Positions 9,628 to 54,403 of a stretch of 64,000 bases of DNA are shown piece after piece. Below the pieces are notes generated by a model, which saw only the letters and a program-made list of their open reading frames with translations, ran no database searches and was not told where the DNA came from. The translations under genes were made by a program, and so were the position numbers. This stretch comes from Candidatus Methylacidiphilales bacterium. GTDB lineage: Bacteria; Verrucomicrobiota; Verrucomicrobiia; Methylacidiphilales; CAZTYG01. Within the stretch, counting starts at the first letter, position 1. Each line of letters begins with the position of its first letter. The stretch covers positions 64,467-128,466 of the forward strand of contig JANRJG010000041.1 in assembly GCA_033875315.1 (NCBI GenBank). Reading direction: 5' to 3'.

Positions 9628-10583
9628 CGCATCCACCTTCCCACACAGGCCCCTATCCGGCGACGTAGCGAATAAAGCCTTGCCCCGCACAAGCGCATCC
9701 AGCGTGCTCGTGCGCGGAAAAGCTCCCCCATGCCGTAACGTTCCGTCATTTCAGCCGTTTCATTCCACGCCCGCACCAATTGGGATCCTGTCTTCGAATC
9801 TGCATGCAGCCGTTGCACCGCCAAAACTTCGGCCAGATAAAACCAACGGGTATCTCGGGCAATCCTCAACCAGTATTCATGGTCCATGCAATATCGGAGG
9901 GCAGAATCCAAGGGACCGAAATGCTCATAAACCCGCCTCCGGATGAAAGTCGCCGGTTGGGAAACAAAATTGTCCCGCAGAAGGCGGGCGACCGAAAACG
10001 GTCCCGTCCGTTTTCTCCTCACCCAACCAGAATCCCCTTCCAAAAAAGCAAAGTCTCCGTAAACCACATCCACCTCGGGATTGGACTGGAAAACTTCCGC
10101 CACCCGGCCCAGGGCGCAAGGTTGCAGATAATCATCCGCACAAAGATACGATAGGAGGTCTCCTTTCGCCGCAGCGAAGCCCCGATTGATCGCATCCGTC
10201 TGCCCCCCATCCGGTTCGCTCACAAAACGGAATTCATATCGGTCCATTACGATGGAAGTCGGGTGATCCCGGAGCAAACCAGAATCCCGCCCCCTTTCAA
10301 CGCAAGGCGTTTCCCGCTTTTTTGTGTTTTCCTCCAACCACGCCACCGTCCCATCTGTGGAAACTCCGTCCTGAACCAGATGTTCCACGGAAAAATCCGA
10401 AACACTGGAACACTGAAATAAAGAGGGGGGCACCTCTCCCCCCTCTCCCCTTTTCAGCGTTTCAGTTTTCAATTTTTCAGCTTTTTCCAGAATCTGCCCC
10501 CGCACACTCTCCACACACTCCGGCAAATAAGCCACTTGGTTGAGGCTCGGGGTGATGATCGAAAACTTCAACATACCTTCCAC
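9624..10583 (-). CDS. GT2 glycosyltransferase with low-complexity insert
   Basis: MLKFSIITPSLNQ...VEHLVQDGVSTDGT...SEPDGGQTDAINRG...CADDY. A Lys/Glu/Gly-rich insert interrupts the N-terminal nucleotide-binding region (see findings). Confidence 0.8.
   Translation of the reverse strand: MEGMLKFSIITPSLNQVAYLPECVESVRGQILEKAEKLKTETLKRGEGGEVPPSLFQCSSVSDFSVEHLVQDGVSTDGTVAWLEENTKKRETPCVERGRDSGLLRDHPTSIVMDRYEFRFVSEPDGGQTDAINRGFAAAKGDLLSYLCADDYLQPCALGRVAEVFQSNPEVDVVYGDFAFLEGDSGWVRRKRTGPFSVARLLRDNFVSQPATFIRRRVYEHFGPLDSALRYCMDHEYWLRIARDTRWFYLAEVLAVQRLHADSKTGSQLVRAWNETAEMTERYGMGELFRARARWMRLCGARLYSLRRRIGACVGRWMR
10422..10446. other. perfect 9-bp GC-rich hairpin (agagggggg / cccccctct, 7-nt loop) inside the GT2 insert
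   Basis: Read directly. Followed on the + strand by cccc + tttcag-type T-rich octamers (10451-10490) and on the - strand by ttatttcag. Confidence 0.8.
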
Positions 10584-10713
10584 CTTCCGGACCCCACAAA
10601 ACCATCCACCCCAGCCCGATCAGGGCCTTCGAGCTTCGGCAGATGGCCGGGACCGCGAGTGGTGAAGTGAAAAGTCATGAACGCCCTCCAAATGGGGTTA
10701 ACCAATGCGCCTG

Positions 10714-13767: not shown

Positions 13768-14945
13768 GGCAGGATATCCTTGTAAATGGAATCCATCTGG
13801 CGCAGCCAGCATGCTTCGTTGAATTTTTCTTCCAAGCCTTTCCGGCCCATGAAACCCATGGTAGCGGCCTCTTCAGGATTGGAAAGGATGTGATCCAAAA
13901 CAGAAGCCCAGACTTCCGGGTCGCCCGCACGTGCCAGCCATCCCGTTTCCCCATGTTGGATCAGCTCGGGCAGGGCCCCGATGTGCGAGGCCAGCACCGC
14001 CCGGCCGCGGGCCCAGGATTCCAGCACGGTCATGCCAAATGGCTCCTCCCAAATCGAGGGAACCACGGAAAAAAGCGATTGCTGCCAGATTTCCTGAATA
14101 TCCGCAGGCTTTTTGAAGCCCTCGAAGATGACCCCCCGTATGCGCTCCTCTCGCACTTTATTGACCAATCCGGTCAATTCAGGGCCTTCGCCGACAATGC
14201 GCAGGCGCACCTTGTCCGTTGCCAACCGCTTCCACGCGTCCAAAAGAACACCCACACCTTTTTCCTGTGACAGCCTCCCCACATAAACCACATCTCGGGC
14301 CTGCTCGAAAGAAAGGGCGGGCCCCTTGGGCTCGAAGAAATGATGCACGACCCGGATGCGGTCGGAGGGCACGCCCATGCGGATGTGGATGTCTTTCTGG
14401 GCCTGGCTGATGGCAATCCAGTATTTCACATGCGAAAAAAGGTCCATCTGGCGGATGCTCGTCAGCACCAACCCCATGATCCCGCTCTTGATATGGCTGT
14501 CGTGCCAACAGGCCGTACTCGCCGCCGCGAAAAAGTTTCCCCGGATACACCGCTGGCAGGCTTCCCCATGGTTCAGAAACATGCCGTTGACGCACGACAT
14601 CCGGTAATTGTGCAAATAATGCACAATCGGAATCCCCCGCTTGAGCGCCTCTCGGTAGACGACAGGTGACATCGCGGGAAACACATTATGGATCTGCCAG
14701 ACGTGGAACTTGCCCGCCTCTTGGTAGCGCCGCAACGTCTCCAAGACCTGCCGGTTGTAGAATACCGAGGCCAGCCCGTTCAAGACAGAAGACCTCTGAT
14801 TGAGCAGTTCGGATGTGCTGTACAAAAGGTATTCCACATCGTGCAGTTTTTGCAGCGCATCGCCGATCCGATAAACACTCCCTTCCTCGCCACCGTATTG
14901 CAGGTAGCGGTTGAATACTTGGAGGATGCGAAGCCGTTTATTCAC
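13764..14945 (-). CDS. GT4 (group 1) glycosyltransferase
   Basis: RILQVFNRYLQYGGEEGSV... with C-terminal EEPFGMTVLESWARGRAVLASHIGALPELI. The first 139 aa of the track ORF overlap the upstream gene and look non-protein-like. GTG 14945 gives a GTGA overlap with the upstream stop. Confidence 0.8.
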   Translation of the reverse strand: MNKRLRILQVFNRYLQYGGEEGSVYRIGDALQKLHDVEYLLYSTSELLNQRSSVLNGLASVFYNRQVLETLRRYQEAGKFHVWQIHNVFPAMSPVVYREALKRGIPIVHYLHNYRMSCVNGMFLNHGEACQRCIRGNFFAAASTACWHDSHIKSGIMGLVLTSIRQMDLFSHVKYWIAISQAQKDIHIRMGVPSDRIRVVHHFFEPKGPALSFEQARDVVYVGRLSQEKGVGVLLDAWKRLATDKVRLRIVGEGPELTGLVNKVREERIRGVIFEGFKKPADIQEIWQQSLFSVVPSIWEEPFGMTVLESWARGRAVLASHIGALPELIQHGETGWLARAGDPEVWASVLDHILSNPEEAATMGFMGRKGLEEKFNEACWLRQMDSIYKDILP

Positions 14946-15985
14946 CTGCTCCCCTTCCAACGCCAGGAGACGTTTCGGCAGACGAAGGCACTCCGCTGGC
15001 CGGGTTTTAGCGGGGTGTAAAGCGCATAGTCGACATGGCGGCGCCGGTAGGCCCCGGCAAACCCCTTCTCCAGCCAGTGCGCGGCTTTGACGAAGGGACG
15101 CAGCAGCCCACCCCGCCAGCCCATTCCCGTCCGCCATTGGCGCGCCTCCGCCAGAGCTCCCGGAGTCTGGCCCAGGTTCCCTTCGCCCATGGCGAAAGTA
15201 GCCAATGGCTTGGGCAGGACGGCCACCCGGAAACCCGCATGCATTACCCCGTGGACAAAAACCGCATCCCCGATGGCCTTCCATTCCACGGGAAAGCGGT
15301 GACCGGCCTCGGCCACCTTCCTGCGGTAAAACATGGCGCAACTCCAAACCCCCAGATGGCACAGACGGATATGCAGTGCCCGCGGCGGCACCACGCGACG
15401 ATAAGACAAAAGGGACCCATCCTCCCGGGTCAGCAGGGCATCCCCGAAGAGGACATCCGTGGCGGCATCACCCGAAAAAAAGTCGGCCACAACAGCCAGC
15501 GTGTCCGGCAGATACTGTTCATCACAATTCAAGTAAGCCAGGATTGCCCCCTCCGCCCGGGAGATCCCCTTGTTGATCGCATCGTACATACCGGTATCCG
15601 GCTCTTTGAAAATACGAAGCGCGTAACCGCATCGGGTGCGAAAGTGTAAAAGTTCAAAAGGTTGAAGGCCGGTGATGGCCTCTCCTCCATATTGGGAACG
15701 CAGGGTTTCGCCAAGTTCTTGGGCAAATTCCTCAATTCCCGGCGTGCCCCCGTCCTGGATCAAATGCTCCACGGCAAAGCCGTGGGTAGGAAAGGGGGAA
15801 GGTAATAAAGTGGGAACGTCCCCCGGTCCAAACTTGTTTACATTCCCACCTTCGCACTTTTTTACCTGCGTACCTTTCGACTTTTCACCTGCGCACTCCC
15901 CCCCCCCCTGATCCGCCACACTGGCAATACAAAGCCTCAACTTGTCCAATTGACCGAACGAGGGCGTGATGATGGAAAAGGTCAT
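14942..15985 (-). CDS. GT2 glycosyltransferase (paralogue of 9624..10583) with low-complexity insert and G11 tract
   Basis: MTFSIITPSFGQ...VEHLIQDGGTPG...EPDTGMYDAINKG...NCDEQY. ATG 15985 is preferred over the track start 16021, which would run into the repeat arm. Confidence 0.8.
   Translation of the reverse strand: MTFSIITPSFGQLDKLRLCIASVADQGGGECAGEKSKGTQVKKCEGGNVNKFGPGDVPTLLPSPFPTHGFAVEHLIQDGGTPGIEEFAQELGETLRSQYGGEAITGLQPFELLHFRTRCGYALRIFKEPDTGMYDAINKGISRAEGAILAYLNCDEQYLPDTLAVVADFFSGDAATDVLFGDALLTREDGSLLSYRRVVPPRALHIRLCHLGVWSCAMFYRRKVAEAGHRFPVEWKAIGDAVFVHGVMHAGFRVAVLPKPLATFAMGEGNLGQTPGALAEARQWRTGMGWRGGLLRPFVKAAHWLEKGFAGAYRRRHVDYALYTPLKPGQRSAFVCRNVSWRWKGSR
15898..15908. repeat. C11 (coding-strand G11) homopolymer inside GT2 gene 14942..15985
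   Basis: 3 C at 15898-15900 plus 8 C at 15901-15908. The coding strand reads CAG GGG GGG GGG GAG (QGGGE). Confidence 0.9.
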
Positions 15986-16003
15986 GGGAATCAGGAAAGT
16001 GCT

Positions 16004-16022
16004 AAGGTGGAAAAGTAGCAAG
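16004..16022. repeat. inverted-repeat arm (stop-codon side) of four-helix-bundle cassette 1
   Basis: aaggtggaaaagtagcaag. The reverse complement of 16444-16463 is aaggtgtaaaagtaggaaag. About 16 of 19 positions match by hand alignment. Confidence 0.6.
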
Positions 16023-16032
16023 TCTTCTCGCT

Positions 16033-16389
16033 CTAATCACGCAAATGCTTGGTAAATGCGGCTATCCGCTTCGACAGTTTTTCAGAAAGCTCGCGCAATT
16101 CCACCGTTTTGCTTTCGGACAATACCCGTATGTCCTCTGCTGCGTAAGTCATGCTGCGCACCTCCCCACAGGACCCCTTGGCCATATCCAGAAAATGGGC
16201 AAAATCCCGAGAAGTGTGCCGCTCGAATCCTTCGGCGATGTTGTTCATGACGGAGAGGGCCGCCCTCCGCATCTGATCGCGAAAAGAAAAATCCCTGCAA
16301 GATTCCAATGCCACATACGCTTGGAAATGAAGTTGTCGCGCTTCCTGCCAAATTTCCAAGTCTTCAAAACGCTGGGCAAACCGCTTCAT
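16033..16389 (-). CDS. four-helix-bundle protein (23S rRNA intervening-sequence protein / Avd-like family)
   Basis: FEDLEIWQEARQL..., RRAALSVMNNIAEGFER, FLDMAKGSCGEVRS: the motifs of this family. Confidence 0.85.
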   Translation of the reverse strand: MKRFAQRFEDLEIWQEARQLHFQAYVALESCRDFSFRDQMRRAALSVMNNIAEGFERHTSRDFAHFLDMAKGSCGEVRSMTYAAEDIRVLSESKTVELRELSEKLSKRIAAFTKHLRD

Positions 16390-16443: not shown

Positions 16444-16463
16444 CTTTCCTACTTTTACACCTT
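16444..16463. repeat. inverted-repeat arm (start-codon side) of four-helix-bundle cassette 1
   Basis: ctttcctacttttacacctt, partner of 16004-16022. 16403-16429 (ctacctaaacccattcagccttcaacc) next to it resembles the 28-nt element family. Confidence 0.6.
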
Positions 16464-16478
16464 CTTACTTCGCTGCCT

Positions 16479-28442: not shown

Positions 28443-29639
28443 ATGAAAAAGTCTTTTGAAATGGCGGTGATCGGCGGGGGAATCGTGGGTTTGGGCACCG
28501 CTCTGGCCCTGTTGAAGAAGCGACCTTCTTGCCGCCTGGTCCTCTTTGAAAAAGAAAAATCCTGCGGCACCCACCAAAGTACGCACAACAGCGGCGTCCT
28601 CCACGCCGGATTGTATTACAAACCCGGATCCCTCAAGGCCCGGCTGGCCGTGGAGGGCATACGTAGAATGACCGCATTCTGCGCTGAGCATGCCGTCCCC
28701 CACGAGATTTGTGGCAAAGTGGTGGTGGCGACGAATCCGGAGGAAATCATCCGACTCAACGCCCTCTATGACCGCGGGCAACAAAATGGTTTGTCCGGAC
28801 TCCGGTTGCTCTCCCAACCCGAGTTATTGCAACGCGAACCCCACGCAGCCGGCCAGGCCGCCCTCCTGGTTCCAGAGGAAGGCATTGTGGACTATGAATC
28901 CGTTTGCGCCGCCCTGGTCGCGGAGATCCGGCAACTCGGCGGTGAAATCGCGACTTCGTCACGGGTGCTAAAGGCCACGGAACATCACTCGGAATGGATA
29001 TTGCAAACCACCTCCGGGGACTACGCTGCCTCGTTTCTCATCAATTGCGCAGGCCTGCATTCGGATCGCGTGGCCACCCTCTCCGGAGAAAAACCGGATT
29101 CCCGGATCATTCCCTTCAGGGGCGAGTACTACAAACTTAAACCTTCGGCTTTCCACTTGGTCAACCACCTCATCTATCCGGTTCCCGACCCCACATTCCC
29201 TTTTTTGGGGGTTCACTTCACCCGGCTCATCCACGGAGGCATCGAAGCCGGACCCAATGCAGTCCTGGCCCTGGCCCGCGAAGGCTACCGCAAGACCGAC
29301 ATCCATCTCCGAGATCTGGCCGGGTCCCTGGCCTATAAGGGTCTTTGGAAGTTTTTATTCCGGCACCCATCCATGTGCTGGCAGGAATGGGCCCAATCGC
29401 TCAGCCCCACTCTTTTTGTCAGGGCTCTGCAAAAACTGGTTCCGAGTATCCAGCTTTCCGACATCGAACCGGGCGGCGCGGGCGTTCGGGCCCAAGCCAT
29501 GGGCGGAGACGGAACCCTGGTGCAGGATTTTGCCCTCATCGCACGTCCCCGAGCCCTCCACGTCCTGAACGCCCCCAGCCCGGCAGCCACCGCATCTTTG
29601 TCCATCGGAGAGGAAATCGCCCGCCGAGTTCTCGACTGA
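28443..29639 (+). CDS. lhgO: FAD-dependent L-2-hydroxyglutarate oxidase/dehydrogenase-like protein
   Basis: MAVIGGGIVGLGTA (FAD fold), SGVLHAGLYYKPGSLKA, IPFRGEYY, VLNAPSPAATASL. Start at ATG 28443. The track N-terminal extension overlaps the divergent flippase gene. Confidence 0.75.
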   Translation: MKKSFEMAVIGGGIVGLGTALALLKKRPSCRLVLFEKEKSCGTHQSTHNSGVLHAGLYYKPGSLKARLAVEGIRRMTAFCAEHAVPHEICGKVVVATNPEEIIRLNALYDRGQQNGLSGLRLLSQPELLQREPHAAGQAALLVPEEGIVDYESVCAALVAEIRQLGGEIATSSRVLKATEHHSEWILQTTSGDYAASFLINCAGLHSDRVATLSGEKPDSRIIPFRGEYYKLKPSAFHLVNHLIYPVPDPTFPFLGVHFTRLIHGGIEAGPNAVLALAREGYRKTDIHLRDLAGSLAYKGLWKFLFRHPSMCWQEWAQSLSPTLFVRALQKLVPSIQLSDIEPGGAGVRAQAMGGDGTLVQDFALIARPRALHVLNAPSPAATASLSIGEEIARRVLD

Positions 29640-29741
29640 TTTCTCCTGCTGGCCAGTTTCTTGTTTCCGCGTGATGGCGTGCCCGCCAAACGCGGCCTTC
29701 AGCCCTTCCCGGTTTACGCGTCACGGCACGGGCAAACTTTG

Positions 29742-29819
29742 GCTTTCCGCTTTCCGCTTTCCGCTTTTCGACTTTTCGACTTTTCGAAATTTCAGCTTTT
29801 CGCTATTTTAGAATCTTTC
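29742..29819. repeat. tandem array of ~10 units of 7-8 nt (gctttcc x3, gcttttc, gacttttc x2, gaaatttc, agcttttc ...)
   Basis: Read directly. Spans the last codons and stop (29792-29794) of the GT4 gene and the convergent intergenic space. Confidence 0.8.
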
Positions 29820-31060
29820 AACCCCAGCGCCATTTCGTAGCAGAGCCGGGTCTGTTCGCGATAGGTGGCTTCGTTGTAATTCTCGGCAATCCGTTTGCTC
29901 GCCTGGTTTCCCAATTGCATGAGCCGGACCCGATCCTGATCGAGATCCAGGATCGCCTCCGCGATCGCCGACGCCATGGTCTCGGGCCGGGTCACGGGAA
30001 TCTTGATGCCACAATCCTCCGTGACGATCTCCGAAGGCCCGCACCAATCCGCCACCACCGGGGCACAACCGGCCAGCATCGCTTCCATCATGGTTTGCCC
30101 CGCCCCTTCCCTCAGGCTGGGCAGAAGGTAAATGTCGGAGGATTGAAGGGTTTTGAAAAAATCCTCGCGGGACAGGGTGTTCCCGATCGACACCTCGCGC
30201 TCCAAACCCAATCGTGCGGCCAAGGCCACCAGATGCTCCAGTTCCGGACCGCGGCTGGTGATGGTATAAGAAAAACGCAGCCCCCGGGCTTTCAACTGGG
30301 CCAGGGCGTGGAGGGCAATGGCCACGCCTTTGCGCCCTTCGAGGTTGCCGCTGCCAAAAATTCGCAGCGGACCCAGGGGGGGAGATGATGTTCCCGGACG
30401 ACGCAATTGCGCGATATGCGCATCAGCAAAGAAAACATTGCAGAAGACAAACACGCCCTCCGCCCTTCCTCGCAGGGGGACCAAAGCCTCCAAGGCCTGT
30501 CCATGGGTCACCGGCACCACCGCGGCATGGCGGGCAGTGGCCCTCACCCCTGGGTTGAACCGGCTCCACACTCCGGACAGACGACGGAACTGCTCGAACA
30601 AGTACGCCGATGGACTGAGGATCCCATAGCAACTCGAAGGAAAAACTTCAGTTCCGCTGATCGGCCCCCAGACCAGTGGAACGGGCAACCGCCACAGGTC
30701 ACATCCCACCCTCCAGGTGGTGTACGTGACGAGGTGGGAAAGATCGAAACCCACCTCCGCGTGCCATCGGCTGGCCTCGGGAAGGATTGCGGCGTTGAAA
30801 TCCATGTAACCCTTCCAGCTTTGGAGCCGTGCCACCATCCGGTTCTCCGAACACTTGGCCTGTCGGCCGAGAAATCGGAAATGAAGGTTCGTCGGGATCA
30901 AGCCCTCACTGCGGGCCCGCTCCAGGGGTGCGGCGTTGTCGCCAGAAGTGATGACATAGATTTCATGATCTTCCGCCAAGGCCCGGCAGGCACGCCAACC
31001 ATAGGCCCCTTCGGAGCCCGCGTAGGGATTGCAGGCGATGGCCGAAACGAGGACTTTCAT
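29792..31060 (-). CDS. GT4 (group 1) glycosyltransferase
   Basis: MKVLVSAIACNPYAGSEGAYGW..., LPSLREGAGQTMMEAMLAGCAPVVADWCGPSEIV. Confidence 0.8.
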   Translation of the reverse strand: MKVLVSAIACNPYAGSEGAYGWRACRALAEDHEIYVITSGDNAAPLERARSEGLIPTNLHFRFLGRQAKCSENRMVARLQSWKGYMDFNAAILPEASRWHAEVGFDLSHLVTYTTWRVGCDLWRLPVPLVWGPISGTEVFPSSCYGILSPSAYLFEQFRRLSGVWSRFNPGVRATARHAAVVPVTHGQALEALVPLRGRAEGVFVFCNVFFADAHIAQLRRPGTSSPPLGPLRIFGSGNLEGRKGVAIALHALAQLKARGLRFSYTITSRGPELEHLVALAARLGLEREVSIGNTLSREDFFKTLQSSDIYLLPSLREGAGQTMMEAMLAGCAPVVADWCGPSEIVTEDCGIKIPVTRPETMASAIAEAILDLDQDRVRLMQLGNQASKRIAENYNEATYREQTRLCYEMALGLKDSKIAKS

Positions 31061-41997: not shown

Positions 41998-43146
41998 TTA
42001 CATTCCCAACCCCAAGGCCGCCAGTTCTTGGGGGATGTCGTAGATGTTGTCCAATTTCCCCCCCATGAGGCTCACCAAACCGCGCATTTCCGGATCCCTA
42101 TGAAAGAGGATCGGCCGACCATCGTCGAGTTCGCTTTGCGGGAGGACGGTCTTCACCTCCCACAACGACCCCTCCTGACGACACTTGGACATGGCAGGAA
42201 GGTAGCGGGCGGCATCGCGGATCATGAGGGGACCGTCGGTGCTTTTGACTGCACGGTCAAAATGTTCATACGCGTCCTGCCAGGCTTCCGTTCCGCTTTG
42301 CGAGCCTCCTTCCTTCCAAGCATGGTGCGGGGTGTAGCGCACGTGGCTCAGGGTCCAAAGTCCGCGGTCGGGAAAAGGCATCAAGGAAAAAAACGGACCA
42401 CACATGACCGTGACCGCCAGATTTTGCAATTCCTGCGGAGGCTGGACCAGTGCCATCTCGGTCAATTCGTGTTTGAGGGGAAGGAGGGGCAGTCCGGAAT
42501 GGTACCGCAGCCGATTCAGTCCGCTGTAGGTGCAATTGAATACCCAAGGGGTTCCGTACAAACGCCGACCCCCATTGGTTTCCACGGCCAATTCCATCGC
42601 CCCATCAGCTCTATGGGTCAGGCACCGGGCGTCGGCCTCAAAATAAAACTCGACCCCCGCCTCCTCCAAGCGCTTCCGCATGGTGAGGCGTAGCTTGCCG
42701 GCATCAAAGGCCACTTCCCGGACTTTCCAGACTTTCTCAATCAACGGCGAGCTGAACAAGCGGGAGACGCGTTCTGGGGCTGGTTGTAGGGGAGCCCCGA
42801 CCCGGGCCATGAAGGTTTCAAACTGGTCCGCCGTCACCTTTCCGAGCACGCGGCCCACGGCGTAGTATTTGTCGAAATCCTCGACAATTGATTCCGGGAA
42901 ATCCTGGAGGAAGTGGGGAAAGTTGACCCGGGAGCGGACGGCGGTCATGAGGCTGCGCGGATAATGGTAGCCATTGTGAACGCGTGCTTGGTTGTGGTAG
43001 GAGGCCCGGAGCATGAAATCCGGACCACGCTCCAGGATCACCGGCGAAAGACCCCGCGCCTTGAGCAACAAGGCCAGATACATGCCAAAAAATCCCCCGC
43101 CCACAACCACGGCATCGGCAGACTGCGTCATACGGGGAGTTTCCAT
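41998..43146 (-). CDS. FAD-dependent oxidoreductase (DAO-type)
   Basis: DAVVVGGGFFGMYLALLLKARG (dinucleotide fold). Confidence 0.72.
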   Translation of the reverse strand: METPRMTQSADAVVVGGGFFGMYLALLLKARGLSPVILERGPDFMLRASYHNQARVHNGYHYPRSLMTAVRSRVNFPHFLQDFPESIVEDFDKYYAVGRVLGKVTADQFETFMARVGAPLQPAPERVSRLFSSPLIEKVWKVREVAFDAGKLRLTMRKRLEEAGVEFYFEADARCLTHRADGAMELAVETNGGRRLYGTPWVFNCTYSGLNRLRYHSGLPLLPLKHELTEMALVQPPQELQNLAVTVMCGPFFSLMPFPDRGLWTLSHVRYTPHHAWKEGGSQSGTEAWQDAYEHFDRAVKSTDGPLMIRDAARYLPAMSKCRQEGSLWEVKTVLPQSELDDGRPILFHRDPEMRGLVSLMGGKLDNIYDIPQELAALGLGM

Positions 43147-49777: not shown

Positions 49778-51775
49778 TCAACCGCTCACTTGTCGCTCTG
49801 TACCAACAAAACCCCTGATCACCCTCACCATGCGGTCGATCTGGGCCGGGGTCAGGCCGGGATAGACTCCGATGAAGATCGCCTCATTCATGATTCTATC
49901 CGCACCCGGGAGAAGGCTTGTTGCTCCTTGTTTGCCCCGGCTTCCCCCGACGACGCGGAACGCGTCCGGGTTGTCATGACGCAACTGGACGAATGCCGGC
50001 TGGCGGACGAGGTTGCCACCAAAGAGCATGCGGTTGCCGATCTTGTGTTCGTCCAAATGCCGGGCCAGATCTGTGCGGGAAAAAGGAGCCCCGGGCTTCA
50101 CCAGCATCATGAAGCCGAACCAGGACGGACTGCAGCGCAGCCCGTGTTCATGTGACATGTCTGAGTTTAAGGGAGAAAGACCGTCGGATTTCCATCCGAA
50201 TGAGGCCTCCTGCCATTCGTCTTTTCTTGAACTTAAACCTTCAACTTCAACTCCCAACCATGCGGATGCATGGGTGGGCAGGGCAAACTCCAGCACATCC
50301 TCCAGCCCGGCCAATCCCCGGCGCAACAATTCCCAGTTGCGTTTGCGGGCCTCGATGAAGGCGGGCATCTTCTTCAATTGGGCCCGGCCGATGGCCGCCT
50401 GCGGATCGAGCGGCTTCAGGTTGTAGCCGATGTGGCTGTAGATGTATTTGTGGTCGTAGCCCTCGGGCAGTTCACCCAGTTGCCAGCCGAACCGTTTCCG
50501 GCAGGTGTTATCGACCCCGCTGGCGCACCAGCAATCCCGGCCCCAGTCCCGGAAGCTCTCCACCAGCACCTTGAGCTTCATGTCCTTGACGATGTTGATG
50601 GCCCCACCCTCGCCCATGGTCAGGTGGTGCGGCGGGTAGAAGGACTGTGTGCTGAGGTCACCGAAAGTGCCGGTGTAGGCGGTCAAAATCCCGTCCACGA
50701 TACGGGGGATTTTGAGTGCCTGGTTCTGTGTGTTTGATTCTGGGTTGGCTCTCGCGCGCTGGAGAAGATGCTGCAATCCCAAGGATTCGGCCAACGCGAC
50801 GGGAAGCGAATATGTGCAACCCAGGGCATCACAATTGTCCTCGATCAGCCAGAGGTCGTGTTTTTTGCAGAAGGCCAGCACGGTGGCCAGATCGAAGGGG
50901 TTGCCCAGGGCGTGGGCCATCATGACGGCCTTGGTTTTCCCGGGGACAAAGGCTTCCTCCAAGCGGGAGAGATCGGCGTTGCCGGTCGTGGGGTCATTGT
51001 CGAGGAAAACGGGCACCGCGCCATTTTGCAGGATCGGGGCCACGGTGGTGGGGAATCCGGCCGCGCAGGTGATGATTTCGTCGCTGGGACGGATGCGTTT
51101 CTCCGGTGGCAGTTTGTGGCTGGTCAGGGCGGTGAAGGCCAGCAGGTTGGCCGAAGAGCCGGAATTGGTCAGGATACAGCGGCGCACCCCGAGGAATTCC
51201 GCCAGTTCGGATTCAAAAGCCTCACCCTCCTTGCCCAGGGTGAGCCAAAAATCGAGGGTGGCGGAAACCGCCGCCGTCACTTCGTCTTCATCAAAGACAC
51301 GACCGGCGTAGGGAATGGCTTCCGGCTTCAAGTTTCCGGCTTCAAGTTTCCGGTGGGTTTCAGCCTCCGTTTCCAAGCGGACCTCATCATCCCCGGGCCT
51401 TTGCGCCAAGTGGGTCAGGCGGGAGAAGGAACGGGAATTGGACAAGGCCAAGGCTTTGTGACAATCCTTCAAACGAGAGGGCTTCAGTGACGCGCCCCAA
51501 TCCCGAAGCTCGGATTCATGAACGGTCAGAAAGCGGTCTGTGCGGATATAACTCGTCTTCAGCAAACGACCGCTGGCCAGATCTTCCTGGGTAAAGGCGA
51601 TCGCATGAGGATAGTGCGGCGCACCGGTGACTTTGAGAAGAGTGACGTCACCCTGTTTATCAGCGCCCGTGATCGCCAATGCAGGCCTGCTTTTCGAAGA
51701 AAAGGATGCCGACCCCTTGCGGTCGGAATCCGTATGTGGCCAGTCAAGGTAGTAAAAGCGGCCGGGTTGGATCAT
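49778..51775 (-). CDS. rfbH: RfbH/DdhC-type CDP-6-deoxy-4-hexulose 3-dehydrase with an N-terminal PemK/MazF-like domain fused in frame
   Basis: Residues ~150-665 match RfbH-family motifs from memory: YAGRVFDEDEV, NSGSSANLLA, AAGFPTTVAP, SFYPPHHLTMGEGG (His replaces the PLP Lys), DWGRDCWCASGVDNTCRKRFG (Cys cluster), GYDHKYIYSHIGYNLKP, SWFGF, RMLFGGNL. Residues 1-~110 look like a PemK/MazF toxin: GRFYYLDW, SKSRPALAIT, LLKTSYIRTDRFLTV. Confidence 0.8.
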   Translation of the reverse strand: MIQPGRFYYLDWPHTDSDRKGSASFSSKSRPALAITGADKQGDVTLLKVTGAPHYPHAIAFTQEDLASGRLLKTSYIRTDRFLTVHESELRDWGASLKPSRLKDCHKALALSNSRSFSRLTHLAQRPGDDEVRLETEAETHRKLEAGNLKPEAIPYAGRVFDEDEVTAAVSATLDFWLTLGKEGEAFESELAEFLGVRRCILTNSGSSANLLAFTALTSHKLPPEKRIRPSDEIITCAAGFPTTVAPILQNGAVPVFLDNDPTTGNADLSRLEEAFVPGKTKAVMMAHALGNPFDLATVLAFCKKHDLWLIEDNCDALGCTYSLPVALAESLGLQHLLQRARANPESNTQNQALKIPRIVDGILTAYTGTFGDLSTQSFYPPHHLTMGEGGAINIVKDMKLKVLVESFRDWGRDCWCASGVDNTCRKRFGWQLGELPEGYDHKYIYSHIGYNLKPLDPQAAIGRAQLKKMPAFIEARKRNWELLRRGLAGLEDVLEFALPTHASAWLGVEVEGLSSRKDEWQEASFGWKSDGLSPLNSDMSHEHGLRCSPSWFGFMMLVKPGAPFSRTDLARHLDEHKIGNRMLFGGNLVRQPAFVQLRHDNPDAFRVVGGSRGKQGATSLLPGADRIMNEAIFIGVYPGLTPAQIDRMVRVIRGFVGTERQVSG
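50226..50253. repeat. solo copy of the ~28-nt cassette-arm element, in frame inside rfbH
   Basis: cttgaacttaaaccttcaacttcaactc. Its reverse complement shares the first 12 nt (gagttgaagttg) and an 8-nt block (tttaagtt) with 53187-53216. About 20 of 26 positions match 53594-53619 in the same orientation. Confidence 0.65.
51322..51349. repeat. perfect 14-nt tandem duplication (ccggcttcaagttt x2) inside the PemK-RfbH linker
   Basis: Read directly from the sequence. Encodes ...KLEAGNLKPEA... Confidence 0.8.
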
Positions 51776-51987
51776 TTGCCGGGGATTTCAAAGAGTTCTT
51801 CCGCAGATTCATCTTCATCCCCTCGGATGAAGGAAGGCATTTGCAGGTCCAGCATCGCTTTTCGTTCGAGCGAGATACTCAGAAGCTCATTTTCGGTATA
51901 AAGTTCTAAGTGTGCCCCCTCGGGAATGGGTTCGCTCGAGTCTATGACCCGCAACACGCCACCCTCCTTGACGACAGTGATACTCAT
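51772..51987 (-). CDS. small antitoxin-like protein (DUF104/AF2212-like N-terminus)
   Basis: 71 aa MSITVVKEGGVLRVIDSSEPIPEGAHLEL... with an acidic tail. ATGA overlaps at both ends: with the rfbG stop (51984-51987) and the toxin-domain start (51772-51775). The track's longer 145-aa version overlaps rfbG. Confidence 0.5.
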   Translation of the reverse strand: MSITVVKEGGVLRVIDSSEPIPEGAHLELYTENELLSISLERKAMLDLQMPSFIRGDEDESAEELFEIPGK

Positions 51988-53225
51988 AATGGTGCATGAT
52001 ACTCCCTGATCTGTCTCCGGGTCAATTCTCCCGGATTGCCCCCCTCGTGAACTCCACGATACCACGCCACGGTTTGTGACAACGTGGTGGCAAAATCCCA
52101 TCGCGGTGACCAGCCCAACAGATGATGGGCCTTGTCCCAGACGAGATTGAGCTTCCCGGCCTCGTGGGGGGCGTTCGGGTCGGAGCGGTCCTCCCAGGTG
52201 CCTGGCCAATGTTTGAGTATTTCCTCGACCAGCTCTTCGACCGTCTTGTTGGATTCCAGATGGGGACCGAAGTTGAAGGCGGCGCAGAGCTCTGCCGTTG
52301 AAGGGTTGAAGGGTTGAGAGGTCGAGGGGATTCCACCTTTAAATCCTTCAACGCCGCCTGCGGCGGCATTCACCCCATCAACACTTGCGGCGAGACGAGC
52401 CGCAAGGAGGAGATAACCGGACAGAGGCTCCAACACGTGCTGCCAGGGACGGGTGGAGATTTTGTTGCGCACGGGCACCGGATGTCCGGAAGCAAGGGCG
52501 CGGATGGCGTCGGGCACAATACGGTCCATAGCCCAATCCCCGCCCCCGATGACATTGCCCGCCCGGGCCGAGGCAACGAAGCACGATGCACGAAGCCCTT
52601 CATCTTCGAAAAACGAATTCCGCCAGGAAGCAATGGCGATCTCCGCCGCGCCTTTGCTCGAACTGTAGGGATCGTGGCCGCCGAGCGGATCCACTTCCCG
52701 GTAGCCGTGCAACCACTCACGGTTTTCGTACACTTTGTCGGTGGTGATGAGGACCGCGACGGTCGTCACCTTGCTCAAGTTTGAGTCGGAAGTTGAAACT
52801 CCCCTTAAACTTGCGGCTTTGGCTTCTTGAAGTGCCCTCAGCGCTTCAAGAACATGGATGGTGCCCATGACGTTGGTTTCCCAGGTCTCCACCGGGGTGC
52901 TGTAGGACAAGCGGACCAAGGGTTGGGCGGCCAGGTGGAAGACGAAGTCGGGCGAAATTTCCAATACGGTCTTTTTCACCGAAGCCCCGTCGCGGATGTC
53001 ACCTCGGCGGTCATTCATTCGGGAGGCGAGTCCCAGTTGATCGAAGAGACAGGGCGAGGACACGGGCTCCGGCAGGCTGAAGCCATGGACCTTGGCCCCG
53101 AGGGAGAGGAGCCACTCACAGAGCCAGGCCCCTTTGAATCCGGTGTGGCCGGTCACGAAAACGTTCTTTCCAAGGAACGTTTTCGTGAGTTGAAGTTGTG
53201 AATTTAAGTTTAAGAGGGAACTCAT
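51984..53225 (-). CDS. rfbG: CDP-glucose 4,6-dehydratase
   Basis: VFVTGHTGFKGAWL, FHLAAQPLVRLSY, DKVYENREW, DPYSSSKGAAE, RAGNVIGGGDW, RPWQHVLEPLSGY. Carries in-frame inserts (see findings). Confidence 0.9.
   Translation of the reverse strand: MSSLLNLNSQLQLTKTFLGKNVFVTGHTGFKGAWLCEWLLSLGAKVHGFSLPEPVSSPCLFDQLGLASRMNDRRGDIRDGASVKKTVLEISPDFVFHLAAQPLVRLSYSTPVETWETNVMGTIHVLEALRALQEAKAASLRGVSTSDSNLSKVTTVAVLITTDKVYENREWLHGYREVDPLGGHDPYSSSKGAAEIAIASWRNSFFEDEGLRASCFVASARAGNVIGGGDWAMDRIVPDAIRALASGHPVPVRNKISTRPWQHVLEPLSGYLLLAARLAASVDGVNAAAGGVEGFKGGIPSTSQPFNPSTAELCAAFNFGPHLESNKTVEELVEEILKHWPGTWEDRSDPNAPHEAGKLNLVWDKAHHLLGWSPRWDFATTLSQTVAWYRGVHEGGNPGELTRRQIREYHAPL
52297..52328. repeat. tandem octamer array (gttgaagg x2, gttgagag, gtcgaggg) inside rfbG
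   Basis: Four consecutive 8-nt units. A further gttgaagg lies at 52272-52279 and an inverted copy ccttcaac at 52345-52352. Confidence 0.75.
52824..52852. other. perfect 9-bp hairpin (ttcttgaag / cttcaagaa, 11-nt loop) inside rfbG; neighbouring 9/10 hairpin 52776-52785 / 52804-52813
   Basis: Read directly. Both lie in the segment encoding the rfbG insert ...QEAKAASLRGVSTSDSNLSKVTT... Confidence 0.75.
53187..53216. repeat. inverted-repeat arm (stop-codon side) of four-helix-bundle cassette 2; also encodes the rfbG N-terminal extension
   Basis: gagttgaagttgtgaatttaagtttaagag. The reverse complement of 53594-53619 is cttgaagttgtaattttaagttagag. Matched blocks of 10+5+5+4 nt separated by small bulges. 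Confidence 0.7.
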
Positions 53226-53584
53226 TTTAAGACATCCGGGGTTTTCAGGCTTCTGGTAAACGCATAAAGTATGTGCGAAAAATCCGCACGTTCACGCAGA
53301 TAAGTTTCCAACTCGGCACCGGTTGCGACCGCCAACTCCCAGGCAATCATCAACTGCGATCTAAGTTCACCAAGTGGGCCCCGGGCGATGCCCACAAAAC
53401 GGGCAAATTCCGCAGGAAAGTTTCGTTCCGCCCGTTCTGCGATTTTGGAGGGCACACTGATGGCGGTTCGTAAAATCCGGCCTCGTAGTGCAAAGAAACG
53501 GCAATCAATGAACACACGACAAACGTAGACGGTCGGTTTGTGGGCTCTTTCCCAAATTTCCAGATCCTCAAAGCCTCTGCTCAT
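53222..53584 (-). CDS. four-helix-bundle protein (23S rRNA IVS protein / Avd-like family), divergent copy
   Basis: FEDLEIWERAHK..., RTAISVPSKIAERAER, IARGPLGELRSQL. ATGA overlap with the rfbG start. Confidence 0.75.
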   Translation of the reverse strand: MSRGFEDLEIWERAHKPTVYVCRVFIDCRFFALRGRILRTAISVPSKIAERAERNFPAEFARFVGIARGPLGELRSQLMIAWELAVATGAELETYLRERADFSHILYAFTRSLKTPDVLK

Positions 53585-53593
53585 GACAATCCG

Positions 53594-53619
53594 CTCTAAC
53601 TTAAAATTACAACTTCAAG
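53594..53619. repeat. inverted-repeat arm (start-codon side) of four-helix-bundle cassette 2
   Basis: ctctaacttaaaattacaacttcaag, 9 nt upstream of the ATG at 53584. Confidence 0.7.
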
Positions 53620-53635
53620 ACGCGACAGAGCCGCG

Positions 53636-54403
53636 TCACCAAACCTTCCAAGGCGCTTTCCCGCTGTTCCAAAGTTCTTCAAGGTGATTCTTATCCCGGA
53701 GGGTATCCATCGGCTGCCAGAATCCTTCGTGCTTGAAGGCCCTCATCTGGCCTTCGGCGGCCAATCGCTCCATGGGCTCCTTTTCCCAAAGCGTTCCATC
53801 ACCCTCCACATGCCCGAGAACCGAGGGATCGAGGACAAAAAAACCACCGTTGATCCAGGAGCCGTCTCCCTTGGGTTTCTCTTGGAAGGCAACCATTTCG
53901 TCCCCGTCTAGTTGCAGCGCACCGAATCTCCCGCTGGGCTGCACGGCGGTCAAAGTGGCCTTTTTCCCATGGGCCTTGTGGAAGGCGATAAGCGCCTTGA
54001 TGTCAACATCCCCCACACCATCTCCATAGGTCATACAGAAGGCACCGTCCTGCACATAAGGAGCGATCCGCTTCAGCCGCCCACCGGTCATCGTGTCTTC
54101 ACCCGTGTCGACGATGGTGACCCGCCAAGGCTCGGTGCGTTTTTCATGTACTTCCATTTTATTGTCCCGCATGTCAAAGGTTACATCGGATTGGTGGAGA
54201 AAATAATTGGCGAAATATTCTTTGATCAGGTATCCCCGGTAACCCGCGCAAATGACAAAGTCATGGATGCCGTGGGCCGAGTAAATCTTCATGATGTGCC
54301 AAAGGATGGGATAATTCCCGATCTGGACCATGGGCTTGGGCTTGAGGGAGGTTTCTTCGCTGAGTCGGGTGCCCAAACCTCCGGCCAAAAGAACTGCTTT
54401 CAT
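53636..54403 (-). CDS. rfbF: glucose-1-phosphate cytidylyltransferase
   Basis: MKAVLLAGGLGTRLSEETSLKPKPMVQIGNYPILWHIMKIYSAHGIHDFVICAGYRGYLIKEYFANY is nearly canonical RfbF. Confidence 0.92.
   Translation of the reverse strand: MKAVLLAGGLGTRLSEETSLKPKPMVQIGNYPILWHIMKIYSAHGIHDFVICAGYRGYLIKEYFANYFLHQSDVTFDMRDNKMEVHEKRTEPWRVTIVDTGEDTMTGGRLKRIAPYVQDGAFCMTYGDGVGDVDIKALIAFHKAHGKKATLTAVQPSGRFGALQLDGDEMVAFQEKPKGDGSWINGGFFVLDPSVLGHVEGDGTLWEKEPMERLAAEGQMRAFKHEGFWQPMDTLRDKNHLEELWNSGKAPWKVW

Follow-up and report, generated by a model that had tools for sequence, protein, structure and literature searches.

An inverted-arm cassette carrying a four-helix-bundle gene between rfbF and rfbG, and its counterparts around related genes in many bacterial phyla

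Background

Intervening sequences (IVS) that carry an open reading frame (ORF) are found in 23S rRNA genes of bacteria such as Leptospira and Coxiella burnetii (Ralph & McClelland 1993; Warrier et al. 2016, PMC4990558). The ORF encodes a four-helix-bundle (4HB) protein and is enclosed by terminal inverted repeats. In Coxiella the element is 428-444 nt long, with a 28-bp stem and tandem heptamers upstream of the ORF, and homologous IVS stems are cut by RNase III in Coxiella and other bacteria (PMC4990558). A selfish or mobile origin has long been suspected. The origin and purpose of 23S rRNA IVSs and the function of their conserved 4HB ORF have been open questions since the early 1990s. A homologous 4HB fold is found in Avd, the accessory protein of diversity-generating retroelements (DGRs), which forms a pentamer and acts as a nucleic-acid and reverse-transcriptase partner.

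Tandem hepta- or octanucleotide arrays arranged as inverted pairs are described separately. Examples are the cyanobacterial STRR hairpins in hupS-hupL spacers (PMC2670836), the paired sites in Geobacter metallireducens, guessed to serve a "global regulator" (PMC2700814), and the TAACTGA repeats of Beggiatoaceae (PMC4679880). They can form hairpins and lie between co-transcribed genes (in Geobacter sometimes inside genes), and their function is unknown. These papers describe no gene between the arms and no link to 4HB proteins, and their unit sequences differ from those found here. In RAYT/REPIN systems and Correia/NEMIS miniature elements, a single gene is flanked by inverted copies of a short element that also occurs as many ORF-less hairpins. 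The hairpins are co-transcribed within operons, and Correia elements are cut by RNase III in mRNA. However, RAYT is a recognisable HUH/Y1 transposase, whereas PF05635 (the 4HB family) has no known catalytic activity, and REP and Correia termini are unique sequences rather than arrays of 7-9-nt repeats. This last comparison was not tested here.

The cassette between rfbF and rfbG

The window analysed is a 64,000-nt stretch of a Candidatus Methylacidiphilales bacterium (GCA_033875315.1, contig JANRJG010000041.1, positions 64,467 to 128,466). The initial annotation described an IVS-like cassette between rfbF and rfbG, consisting of a 4HB gene closed by inverted arms of about 28 nt, and this observation was confirmed. 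The features of this cassette (cassette 2) and its surroundings, all on the minus strand, are:

53636..54403 (-), rfbF (glucose-1-phosphate cytidylyltransferase-like), the upstream neighbour
53619..53637 (-), short GC-rich hairpin (GACGCGgctctgtCGCGUC) between the rfbF stop codon and the 5' arm
53591..53625 (-), 5' arm (sense RNA: UCGCGUCUUGAAGUUGUAAUUUUAAGUUAGAGCGG), containing GAAGT/TAAGT units
53222..53584 (-), four-helix-bundle gene (120 aa)
53222..53225 (-), ATGA overlap of the 4HB stop codon and the rfbG start codon
53183..53217 (-), 3' arm, inside the rfbG ORF (codons 3-15, SLLNLNSQLQLT)
53153..53188 (-), near-perfect hairpin (17-nt arms, 2-nt loop) directly after the 3' arm, within rfbG codons 13-25
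51984..53225 (-), rfbG (CDP-glucose 4,6-dehydratase-like), with an N-terminal extension encoded by the arm

The ORF belongs to the IVS/Avd 4HB family, as had been proposed. It matches PF05635 (E=2.6e-17, 63.4 bits against a cut-off of 33.8, profile positions 1-104 of 106) and TIGR02436 (E=2.1e-17, 63.3 bits against a cut-off of 24). A profile of the family alignment that includes this protein hits the solved pentameric four-helix bundle XCC0516 (PDB 2GSC, chain A) at E=5.5e-18; no structure was predicted for the protein itself. The protein is a divergent member, with SKIAERAER where relatives have NNIAEGFER. Of the conserved helix motif R-x3-S-x2-NN-x2-EG-x-ER it keeps R, S and two E residues, while NN is replaced by SK and EGFER by ERAER, so that the presence of the motif is left undecided. 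This copy departs from several near-invariant family residues and may be decaying. The neighbours match PF16363/PF01370 (rfbG) and PF00483 (rfbF). No reverse transcriptase or template/variable repeat pair lies next to the gene, and direct repeats in 53100-53700 are only short chance-level pairs. Neither this 4HB protein nor the second one in the window was hit in PADLOC or PHROGs. A toxin-antitoxin pair formed by the small ORF and the N-terminal extension of rfbH was also considered, but got no support from Pfam or NCBIfam.

The arms are 35 nt long, 77% complementary, and 373 nt apart. A local-alignment scan of 6336 window positions for inverted repeats spaced 330-600 nt ranked this pair first (score 34; mean 15.0, sd 2.4, 99.9th percentile 28). 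The pair around the window's other 4HB gene (16033-16389) ranked fourth (score 26). A duplex-energy scan of the whole window was dominated by G+C content and long internal loops and did not single out the AT-rich arms. Folding of the minus-strand RNA 53170-53640 against shuffled controls had been proposed as a test of the stem. The minimum-free-energy (MFE) fold pairs the two arms at -158.6 kcal/mol against -140.5 +/- 6.4 for shuffles (z=-2.84; 1 of 100 shuffles as good). The arm-arm duplex alone has 29 pairs at -31.0 kcal/mol (z=-6.2; 0 of 500 shuffles of the 3' arm as good). The GC-rich hairpin forms in the MFE folds, and the hairpin after the 3' arm (94% complementary) forms in the extended fold.

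The unit spans 443 nt from arm tip to arm tip, which together with the 29-pair stem matches the size and stem length of ORF-bearing 23S rRNA IVSs, for which a stem of 20 bp or more and a total length of about 430-760 nt were taken as the criterion. The total size in both is about 430-480 nt or more, and the Shine-Dalgarno sequence is poor or absent in both. Here the host is an mRNA operon rather than helix 9, 25 or 45 of 23S rRNA, and the 3' arm is translated as part of the downstream protein. The window has no Rfam rRNA match, and none of the 80 related loci contains the sarcin-ricin loop motif. Rfam found no family on the arms, either at gathering thresholds or at relaxed E-values. Two corrections to the initial annotation follow: the arms are not merely complementary but are built from short units with an RARGT core, and the 3' arm lies wholly inside the rfbG reading frame. 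The array in this cassette is weak, with only 2 RARGT units upstream of the gene and 1 ACYTY unit downstream.

Arms around related genes

Whether relatives carry the ORF without complementary arms had been named in advance as a point that could refute the reading. A word-index protein search with the cassette 2 protein found only itself, so the canonical protein of the window's second 4HB gene was used as the query (7871 homologues with E <= 0.001). In 77 4HB genes from 80 genomes of many phyla, the median inverted-repeat score of the flanks is 36, compared with 16 for shifted-window controls (p=6.4e-45), and 96% of the genes lie above the control 95th percentile. The flanks of 166 other genes in the same loci also have a median of 16 (p=1.2e-32), and 58% of the 4HB genes exceed the control maximum. 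The median unit size is 470 nt and the median arm length 35 nt. A cassette's own 3' arm is the best partner for its 5' arm in 28 of 77 cases and is in the top three in 44. No paper was found that links 4HB genes outside rRNA to such arms.

The arms are inverted arrays of 7-9-nt units. AAAGT is 12-fold enriched upstream of the gene and ACTTT 14-fold downstream, with spacings of 7, 8, and 9 nt dominating. Polarity is strongly preferred (AAAGT-first 64, ACTTT-first 4). This arrangement resembles the STRR-type hairpins, from which the cassette differs in having a 363-nt ORF between the arms. An RARGT-core array shared across phyla is not described in PMC4990558; no genuine 23S IVS sequence was included for a direct comparison of arm repeats.

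Between unrelated genomic contexts, DNA homology stops at the outer arm ends. Nucleotide identity of 68-75% is confined to arm-ORF-arm in the trio of loci L014/L016/L066 and in the pair L044/L053, and 4HB proteins are 70-77% identical across phyla. Arm-ORF-arm is therefore the transferable unit. Of the neighbouring genes, 63 of 72 upstream and 63 of 74 downstream are co-directional. In 69 of 77 ORFs a start codon and no internal stop were found; four have in-frame stops, and for four no start codon was detected. No target-site duplications were seen at nine inspected elements. The arms of the window's two cassettes do not cross-match (scores 13 and 16, at background), so the near-identical termini of a classical transposon or MITE are also absent. 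No recombinase, transposase, or reverse transcriptase is adjacent to the cassette, and the means of spread is unknown.

The rfbF-rfbG junction in relatives

Orthologous junctions had been suggested as the place to look for empty sites. In most relatives with rfbF upstream, the tblastn hits lie -21 to +86 nt apart, meaning that rfbF abuts rfbG and the cassette is an insertion into a normally tight junction. Relatives of rfbF with 70-73% identity lie upstream of rfbG in other contigs. Most of the 80 RfbG relatives align only from query residue 11-20 onward, and the 3' arm does encode the extra N-terminal residues, as the initial annotation stated.

Two metagenome contigs, L082 and L083 (RfbG 60%, RfbF 70% identical), carry an orthologous cassette with arms and the same arm-encoded LNLNSQL in RfbG. 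This copy is therefore not recent. In L082 the homologous arm and peptide (NYLNLNSQL) are present and the 4HB orthologue keeps SNIAEG. A hairpin of different sequence (GGCCACaccGTGGCC) occupies the place of the GC-rich hairpin, while the near-perfect hairpin after the 3' arm is not conserved. No close relative of this genome (RfbG more than 63% identical) was found in the metagenome scan, and no recent empty or filled site was compared.

Interpretation

The interpretation given in the initial annotation was only partly supported: its reading as a mobile IVS-type element that also colonises mRNA operons was borne out and generalised, while its alternative, an RNase III site that uncouples rfbF from rfbG-rfbH, remains untested, and several results sit badly with it. 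Cassette 2 is best explained (probability about 0.7) as an old, vertically retained copy of a widespread, horizontally transferable element, a PF05635 gene bracketed by inverted arrays of 7-9-nt repeats with an RARGT core. In this view it is the same kind of element as the ORF-bearing IVSs, which appear to be one landing site of a widespread mobile cassette. The analysis itself demonstrates that the arm-ORF-arm unit is near-universal for this subfamily, that arms tend to match within their own cassette (to the extent counted above), and that the borders of the unit coincide with the limits of DNA homology. It also demonstrates that the unit usually sits co-directionally between operon genes, right after an upstream stop codon and right before a downstream start codon, and that here it entered the rfbF-rfbG junction long ago, its 3' arm now encoding the first residues of RfbG and the 4HB stop overlapping the rfbG start.

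The remainder is inferred, in decreasing order of likelihood. The cassette would have no promoter of its own and be co-transcribed with rfbF, rfbG, and rfbH; no transcript data exist for this organism. A scan of 52900-53900 found no promoter-like site and one terminator-like hairpin inside the 4HB ORF, no more than shuffles give. In the transcript the arms could zip into a 29-pair interrupted helix that loops out the ORF, which would be what lets the same element be tolerated, and excised by RNase III, in rRNA. Here the helix and the adjacent 17-bp hairpin would mask the rfbG start region, RfbG synthesis would depend on ribosomes translating the 4HB ORF and re-initiating at ATGA, and any RNase III cut would lower rfbG and rfbH expression rather than productively uncouple them. 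Least likely of these, the conserved RARGT arrays would be binding sites for the element's own 4HB oligomer, for autoregulation or for spread; such binding is pure inference.

A built-in RNase III processing site is a doubtful alternative. The stem is longer than about two helical turns and forms in the MFE folds, homologous IVS stems are cut by RNase III, cassettes are mostly co-directional with their neighbours, and the small GC hairpin just upstream of the 5' arm is structurally conserved in L082 and could protect a processed rfbF 3' end. However, the 3' arm lies downstream of the only plausible rfbG start codon, so that a cut in the stem would sever rfbG from it and inactivate the mRNA rather than release it, and L082 keeps the same arrangement. 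Excision from the precursor RNA was not measured here, although the stem length is adequate. No RNA-level signature was found: sense G·U mismatches are not in excess (66 against 85 A·C), sense and antisense duplex energies do not differ (-38.0 against -38.5 kcal/mol, p=0.52), and for this cassette the antisense duplex is the more stable (-38.1 against -31.0 kcal/mol). A motif conserved across phyla is not needed for RNase III and is not predicted by a purely structural stem.

A DNA-level mobile element is possible, though less likely than not. In this reading the arms are terminal inverted repeats made of sub-repeats (foldback-like or RAYT/REPIN-like), recognised as DNA by the 4HB protein or by a host or trans-acting enzyme, ORF-less hairpins are non-autonomous derivatives, and any RNA stem is a by-product. 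The symmetric mismatch spectrum, the equal folding of both strands, the end of homology at the arm tips, the ORF-less hairpins, the conserved, phased motif, and the arm polarity agree with it. The lack of target-site duplications, of any known catalytic domain in PF05635, and of PADLOC or PHROGs hits speaks against it, as do the different arms of the two copies in one genome and the long residence of this copy. It is unlikely that the 4HB protein is a host regulator or insulator with its own operator arrays and that the element is neither selfish nor mobile. The motif phasing, the mostly intact ORFs, the long retention at rfbF-rfbG, and the earlier guess for Geobacter (PMC2700814) would fit, but the distribution is sporadic with most junctions empty, homology limited to the unit across phyla implies transfer, and a local operator makes little sense inside rRNA genes, where the same element occurs. 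Chance complementarity of AT-rich sequence around a hitch-hiking gene, suggested only by the low G+C and imperfect arms, is refuted by the window ranking, the arm shuffles, and both comparative controls.

A more speculative and tentative reading is also compatible with the data. 4HB (S23p/Avd-like) proteins could be the trans-acting partner of a large, so far unrecognised class of bacterial hairpin elements built from tandem 7-9-nt repeats. Arm-4HB-arm cassettes would be the autonomous form, STRR-like ORF-less hairpins the non-autonomous form, and ORF-bearing rRNA IVSs simply cassettes that landed in rRNA helix tips. The 4HB oligomer would bind the phased RARGT repeats and promote spread or maintenance of the element, analogously to RAYT and REPINs.

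If the arm-ORF-arm unit is the general form of this gene family, several scattered observations become one phenomenon with a testable model: rRNA IVSs, 4HB genes wedged into cas and polysaccharide operons, the paired arrays once called "global regulator sites", and possibly the listing of 23S_rRNA_IVP as "CRISPR-associated" in array-based screens. The meaning of tandem-heptamer hairpins inside operons has likewise been an open question. For annotation, these cassettes alter the start regions of downstream genes, as with RfbG, can insert repeat-encoded peptides into proteins, and may mimic small CRISPR arrays.

The second cassette and an ORF-less hairpin in the window

Additional arm-flanked copies had also been listed beforehand as something the mobile reading should produce, and the window contains one (cassette 1). 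No tRNA genes were found in the window. The relevant features are:

16446..16475 (-), 5' arm of cassette 1 (GAAGT-AAGAAGGT-GTAAAAGT units)
16033..16389 (-), second four-helix-bundle gene (118 aa, canonical sequence)
15992..16021 (-), 3' arm of cassette 1, ending 6 nt before the ATG of the downstream GT2 gene
15770..15905 (-), ORF-less hairpin made of the same kind of purine and pyrimidine repeat arrays, in frame inside the GT2 gene

The cassette 1 protein matches PF05635 at E=6.1e-30. Its arms carry 4 units on each side and form a duplex of 24 pairs at -26.7 kcal/mol (z=-2.9). ORF-less hairpins with similar units also occur in the same loci as the 4HB genes of other genomes, and match the STRR-like arrays.

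A four-helix-bundle gene between rfbF and rfbG

In the analyzed Candidatus Methylacidiphilales MAG sequence a small gene is located between rfbF and rfbG. The gene order on the minus strand is:

53636-54403 (-), rfbF
53222-53584 (-), 120-aa ORF
51984-53225 (-), rfbG
49778-51775 (-), rfbH-like aminotransferase

The 120-aa ORF matches PF05635 (E=2.6e-17) and TIGR02436, and a profile which includes it hits the pentameric four-helix bundle (4HB) XCC0516 (PDB 2GSC, E=5.5e-18). Its TGA stop codon overlaps the rfbG ATG as ATGA. Further downstream, the rfbH-like gene has an N-terminal extension of about 150 aa (51330-51775, minus strand) with no family match, and the C-terminal ~71 aa (MSITVVKEGG... 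to the end, about 51772-51987) of the minus-strand ORF 51772-52209 fills the short rfbG-rfbH gap, while the rest of that ORF overlaps rfbG. These two looked like an inserted toxin-antitoxin pair, but neither Pfam nor NCBIfam supports this. The cassette around the 120-aa ORF (cassette 2) consists of the gene and two arms of 35 nt each, 53591-53625 (5' arm) and 53183-53217 (3' arm), which are 77% complementary.

The initial annotation described an inverted repeat around this gene, and this observation is confirmed. Its stability against shuffled controls had been put forward beforehand as a criterion. The minimum-free-energy fold of the sense RNA pairs the arms (z=-2.84), and the arm duplex alone has 29 pairs at -31.0 kcal/mol, with none of 500 shuffles of the 3' arm as stable. 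In a scan of all 6336 positions of the window for inverted repeats spaced 330-600 nt, this pair ranks first (score 34; mean 15.0, sd 2.4). A separate energy scan found its strongest long-range RNA duplex (-66 kcal/mol) elsewhere, at about 29560-30080 (minus strand), between 30031-30080 and 29561-29710; this duplex was not examined further.

Two additional hairpins flank the arms. A short GC-rich hairpin lies between the rfbF stop codon and the 5' arm (53619-53637, minus strand) and might protect an mRNA 3' end. A near-perfect hairpin with 17-nt arms (94% complementary, 2-nt loop) directly follows the 3' arm, within rfbG codons 13-25 (53153-53188, minus strand). In it the non-conserved N-terminal codons are complementary to the codons of the conserved GKNVFVT motif.

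A second cassette in the window

Whether other 4HB genes with the same arms exist had also been named as a test. A phmmer search of all window ORFs found one more 4HB gene, at 16033-16389 on the minus strand (PF05635, E=6.1e-30). Its arms, 16446-16475 and 15992-16021, are the fourth-best inverted repeat in the window. However, the arm sequences of the two cassettes do not cross-match (scores of 13 and 16, at background).

Inverted arms are general among 4HB genes

An alignment of 4HB proteins was used to retrieve 80 loci from the species-representative genome collection. These span Verrucomicrobiota, Patescibacteria, Bacteroidota, Omnitrophota, Desulfobacterota, Spirochaetota, Nitrospirota, and others. 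For 77 4HB ORFs the best local inverted-repeat alignment between the 150 nt upstream and the 150 nt downstream was scored.

Table. Inverted-repeat scores of 4HB gene flanks and of two kinds of control.
4HB genes: n 77; median score 36; mean 38.3
Shifted windows in the same loci: n 665; median score 16; 95th percentile 21, 99th percentile 25
Flanks of other genes in the same loci: n 166; median score 16; 95th percentile 24, maximum 33

Against shifted windows (Mann-Whitney p=6.4e-45), 96% of 4HB genes exceed the 95th percentile and 83% the 99th. Against the flanks of other genes (p=1.2e-32), 86% exceed the 95th percentile and 58% exceed the maximum. A cassette's own 3' arm is the best partner for its 5' arm in 28 of 77 cases and among the best three in 44. 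The arms are therefore matched to each other, not merely alike in composition. The median unit size is 470 nt (IQR 440-489) and the median arm length is 35 nt. Three 4HB genes lie within 3 kb of one Patescibacteria contig (locus L046: 976-1326, 2986-3369, and 3514-3945), two of them adjacent, and each has its own, different arms.

In a check for a start codon and no internal stop, 69 of 77 ORFs passed. For four no start codon was found by the script, and four have in-frame stops yet keep their arms. In loci L045, L066/L071, and L072 there is a single in-frame stop codon (in L066, TAG where W is expected in FEDxxxW) while the arms remain good, with scores of 27-62. Upstream neighbors are co-directional in 63 of 72 cases and downstream neighbors in 63 of 74. 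The arms typically begin just after the upstream stop codon and end just before the downstream start codon.

Composition of the arms

The arms are arrays of short units. AAAGT is 12-fold enriched in the 100 nt upstream of the gene and ACTTT is 14-fold enriched downstream, and successive RARGT cores are spaced 7, 8, or 9 nt apart. The polarity is fixed: AAAGT-first against ACTTT-first is 64 to 4. Cassette 2 is a weak example (GAAGT and TAAGT units), while the second cassette of the window (cassette 1) is a typical one. The window holds five arrays of three or more RARGT units, where shuffles give 0.16, and two of the five are the arms of cassette 1. Two further arrays of three RARGT units, at 42713-42735 and 10565-10586 (both minus strand), have no 4HB gene nearby, and no inverted partner of 16 nt or more was found near them. 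No Rfam family covers the arms.

The arm-ORF-arm unit is transferable

Among high-identity pairs of cassettes, some are orthologous loci in which the flanks are homologous too. Others share 68-75% nucleotide identity only from arm tip to arm tip, with unrelated flanks: the trio of loci L014 (Flavobacteriales), L016 (Bacteroides), and L066 (Nitrospirota), and the pair L044 (Berkelbacteria) and L053 (Patescibacteria). Proteins from different phyla are 70-77% identical. No target-site duplications were seen.

History of the rfbF-rfbG copy

Empty rfbF-rfbG junctions in relatives were a further prediction made in advance for an inserted cassette. Among 80 metagenomic RfbG relatives, rfbF lies directly upstream in most, with tblastn hits -21 to +86 nt apart; these are empty sites. 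The exception is a pair of these loci, L082 and L083, whose RfbG is 60% and RfbF 70% identical to those of the window. They carry a 4HB gene (38% identical) at the same junction, with arms at 2082-2101 and 2508-2527, and a GC hairpin after the rfbF stop codon. This hairpin (L082 2062-2077) has an entirely different stem sequence from that of the window (GGCCAC/GTGGCC against GACGCG/CGCGTC). The 17-nt-arm hairpin after the 3' arm is not present in L082. In L082 and L083 RfbG starts upstream of the arm and reads NYLNLNSQL, where the window reads SSLLNLNSQL. The insertion is therefore ancient and has been inherited vertically here. The closest RfbG relative, in locus L081 (63% identical), has a 184-nt rfbF-rfbG spacer (1684-1866) with no 4HB gene and only faint arm-like sequence (AGAAGTTCAAAG), which could be a decayed cassette or unrelated sequence.

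Action at the RNA or DNA level

Two tests for selection on a sense-strand RNA helix were both neutral. Mismatches which would be G·U in the sense RNA number 66, against 85 A·C (p=0.14). Sense and antisense arm duplexes are equally stable (-38.0 against -38.5 kcal/mol; p=0.52), and for cassette 2 the antisense duplex is the more stable. The helix would still form in any transcript, and homologous stems of 23S rRNA intervening sequences (IVSs) are RNase III substrates (PMC4990558).

The interpretation in the initial annotation is partly supported. Its reading of an IVS-like mobile cassette is supported and extended to a whole family, but the proposed function as an RNase III site uncoupling rfbF from the downstream genes is unproven and fits this locus poorly. 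The 3' arm covers rfbG codons 3-15, and there is no alternative start codon before the Rossmann motif, so a cut would inactivate rfbG mRNA rather than productively uncouple the genes. The most economical reading is that the structures mask the rfbG start region, and that RfbG synthesis then depends on ribosomes finishing the 4HB ORF and re-initiating at ATGA. This masking and re-initiation model is inferred, not a result.

Comparison with known elements

The closest known kind is the ORF-bearing 23S rRNA IVS, which has the same protein family, the same geometry, and, in Coxiella, tandem heptamers upstream of the ORF (PMC4990558). Its defining location in rRNA does not apply to the present cassette. 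The arms and the ORF-less hairpins resemble cyanobacterial STRR hairpins between operon genes (PMC2670836), the paired tandem hepta- and octanucleotide arrays of Geobacter metallireducens, which were read as global-regulator sites (PMC2700814), and the TAACTGA repeats of Beggiatoaceae (PMC4679880).

Earlier work noted 23S_rRNA_IVP genes wedged between cas genes (PMC3936711), listed the family as CRISPR-array-associated (PMC10910872), and found it in CPR rRNA insertions. None of the papers searched links non-rRNA 4HB genes to flanking inverted repeat arrays, although coverage of the literature was incomplete and a prior description cannot be excluded. The result ties together IVSs, heptamer hairpins, and the 4HB family, and opens a thirty-year-old question to direct experiments.

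Hairpins without an ORF

ORF-less hairpins made of RARGT and ACYTY arrays occur in several 4HB loci (L010 510-577; L023 2853-2965 and 3338-3492; L029 2200-2282; L059 764-830; L070 2127-2226; L077 2925-2977), some with units visibly like those of the arms of the local cassette. None was found in the 80 rfb loci. In the Nitrospirota locus L066 a long, near-perfect ORF-less hairpin of tandem purine heptamers (GGATGAA / GGATGGA / GAATGGA) and their complement (2484-2602) lies about 330 nt upstream of a 4HB cassette. It is found just upstream of the ribosome-binding site of a gene that looks like a STAS-type anti-sigma-factor antagonist (its family was not checked). Rfam microRNA models matched this sequence only because it is a long hairpin.

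In the window, an ORF-less hairpin built from the same kind of repeats (15770-15905, minus strand) lies in frame inside a GT2 glycosyltransferase gene (ORF 14942-16021). The purine array is GTGAAAAGTCGAAAGGTACGCAGGTAAAAAAGTGCGAAGGTGGGAATGT and the pyrimidine array is CCCACTTTATTACCTTCCCCCTTTCC. The hairpin adds about 45 residues between the SVADQ and EHLIQDGG motifs and folds at -59.8 kcal/mol (z=-2.47). A run of 13 G (minus strand, about 15895-15907), which may be a slippage-prone tract or an assembly weakness, lies at the 5' edge of this in-frame insertion. The purine array is 86% complementary to the 3' arm of cassette 1, 135 nt upstream.
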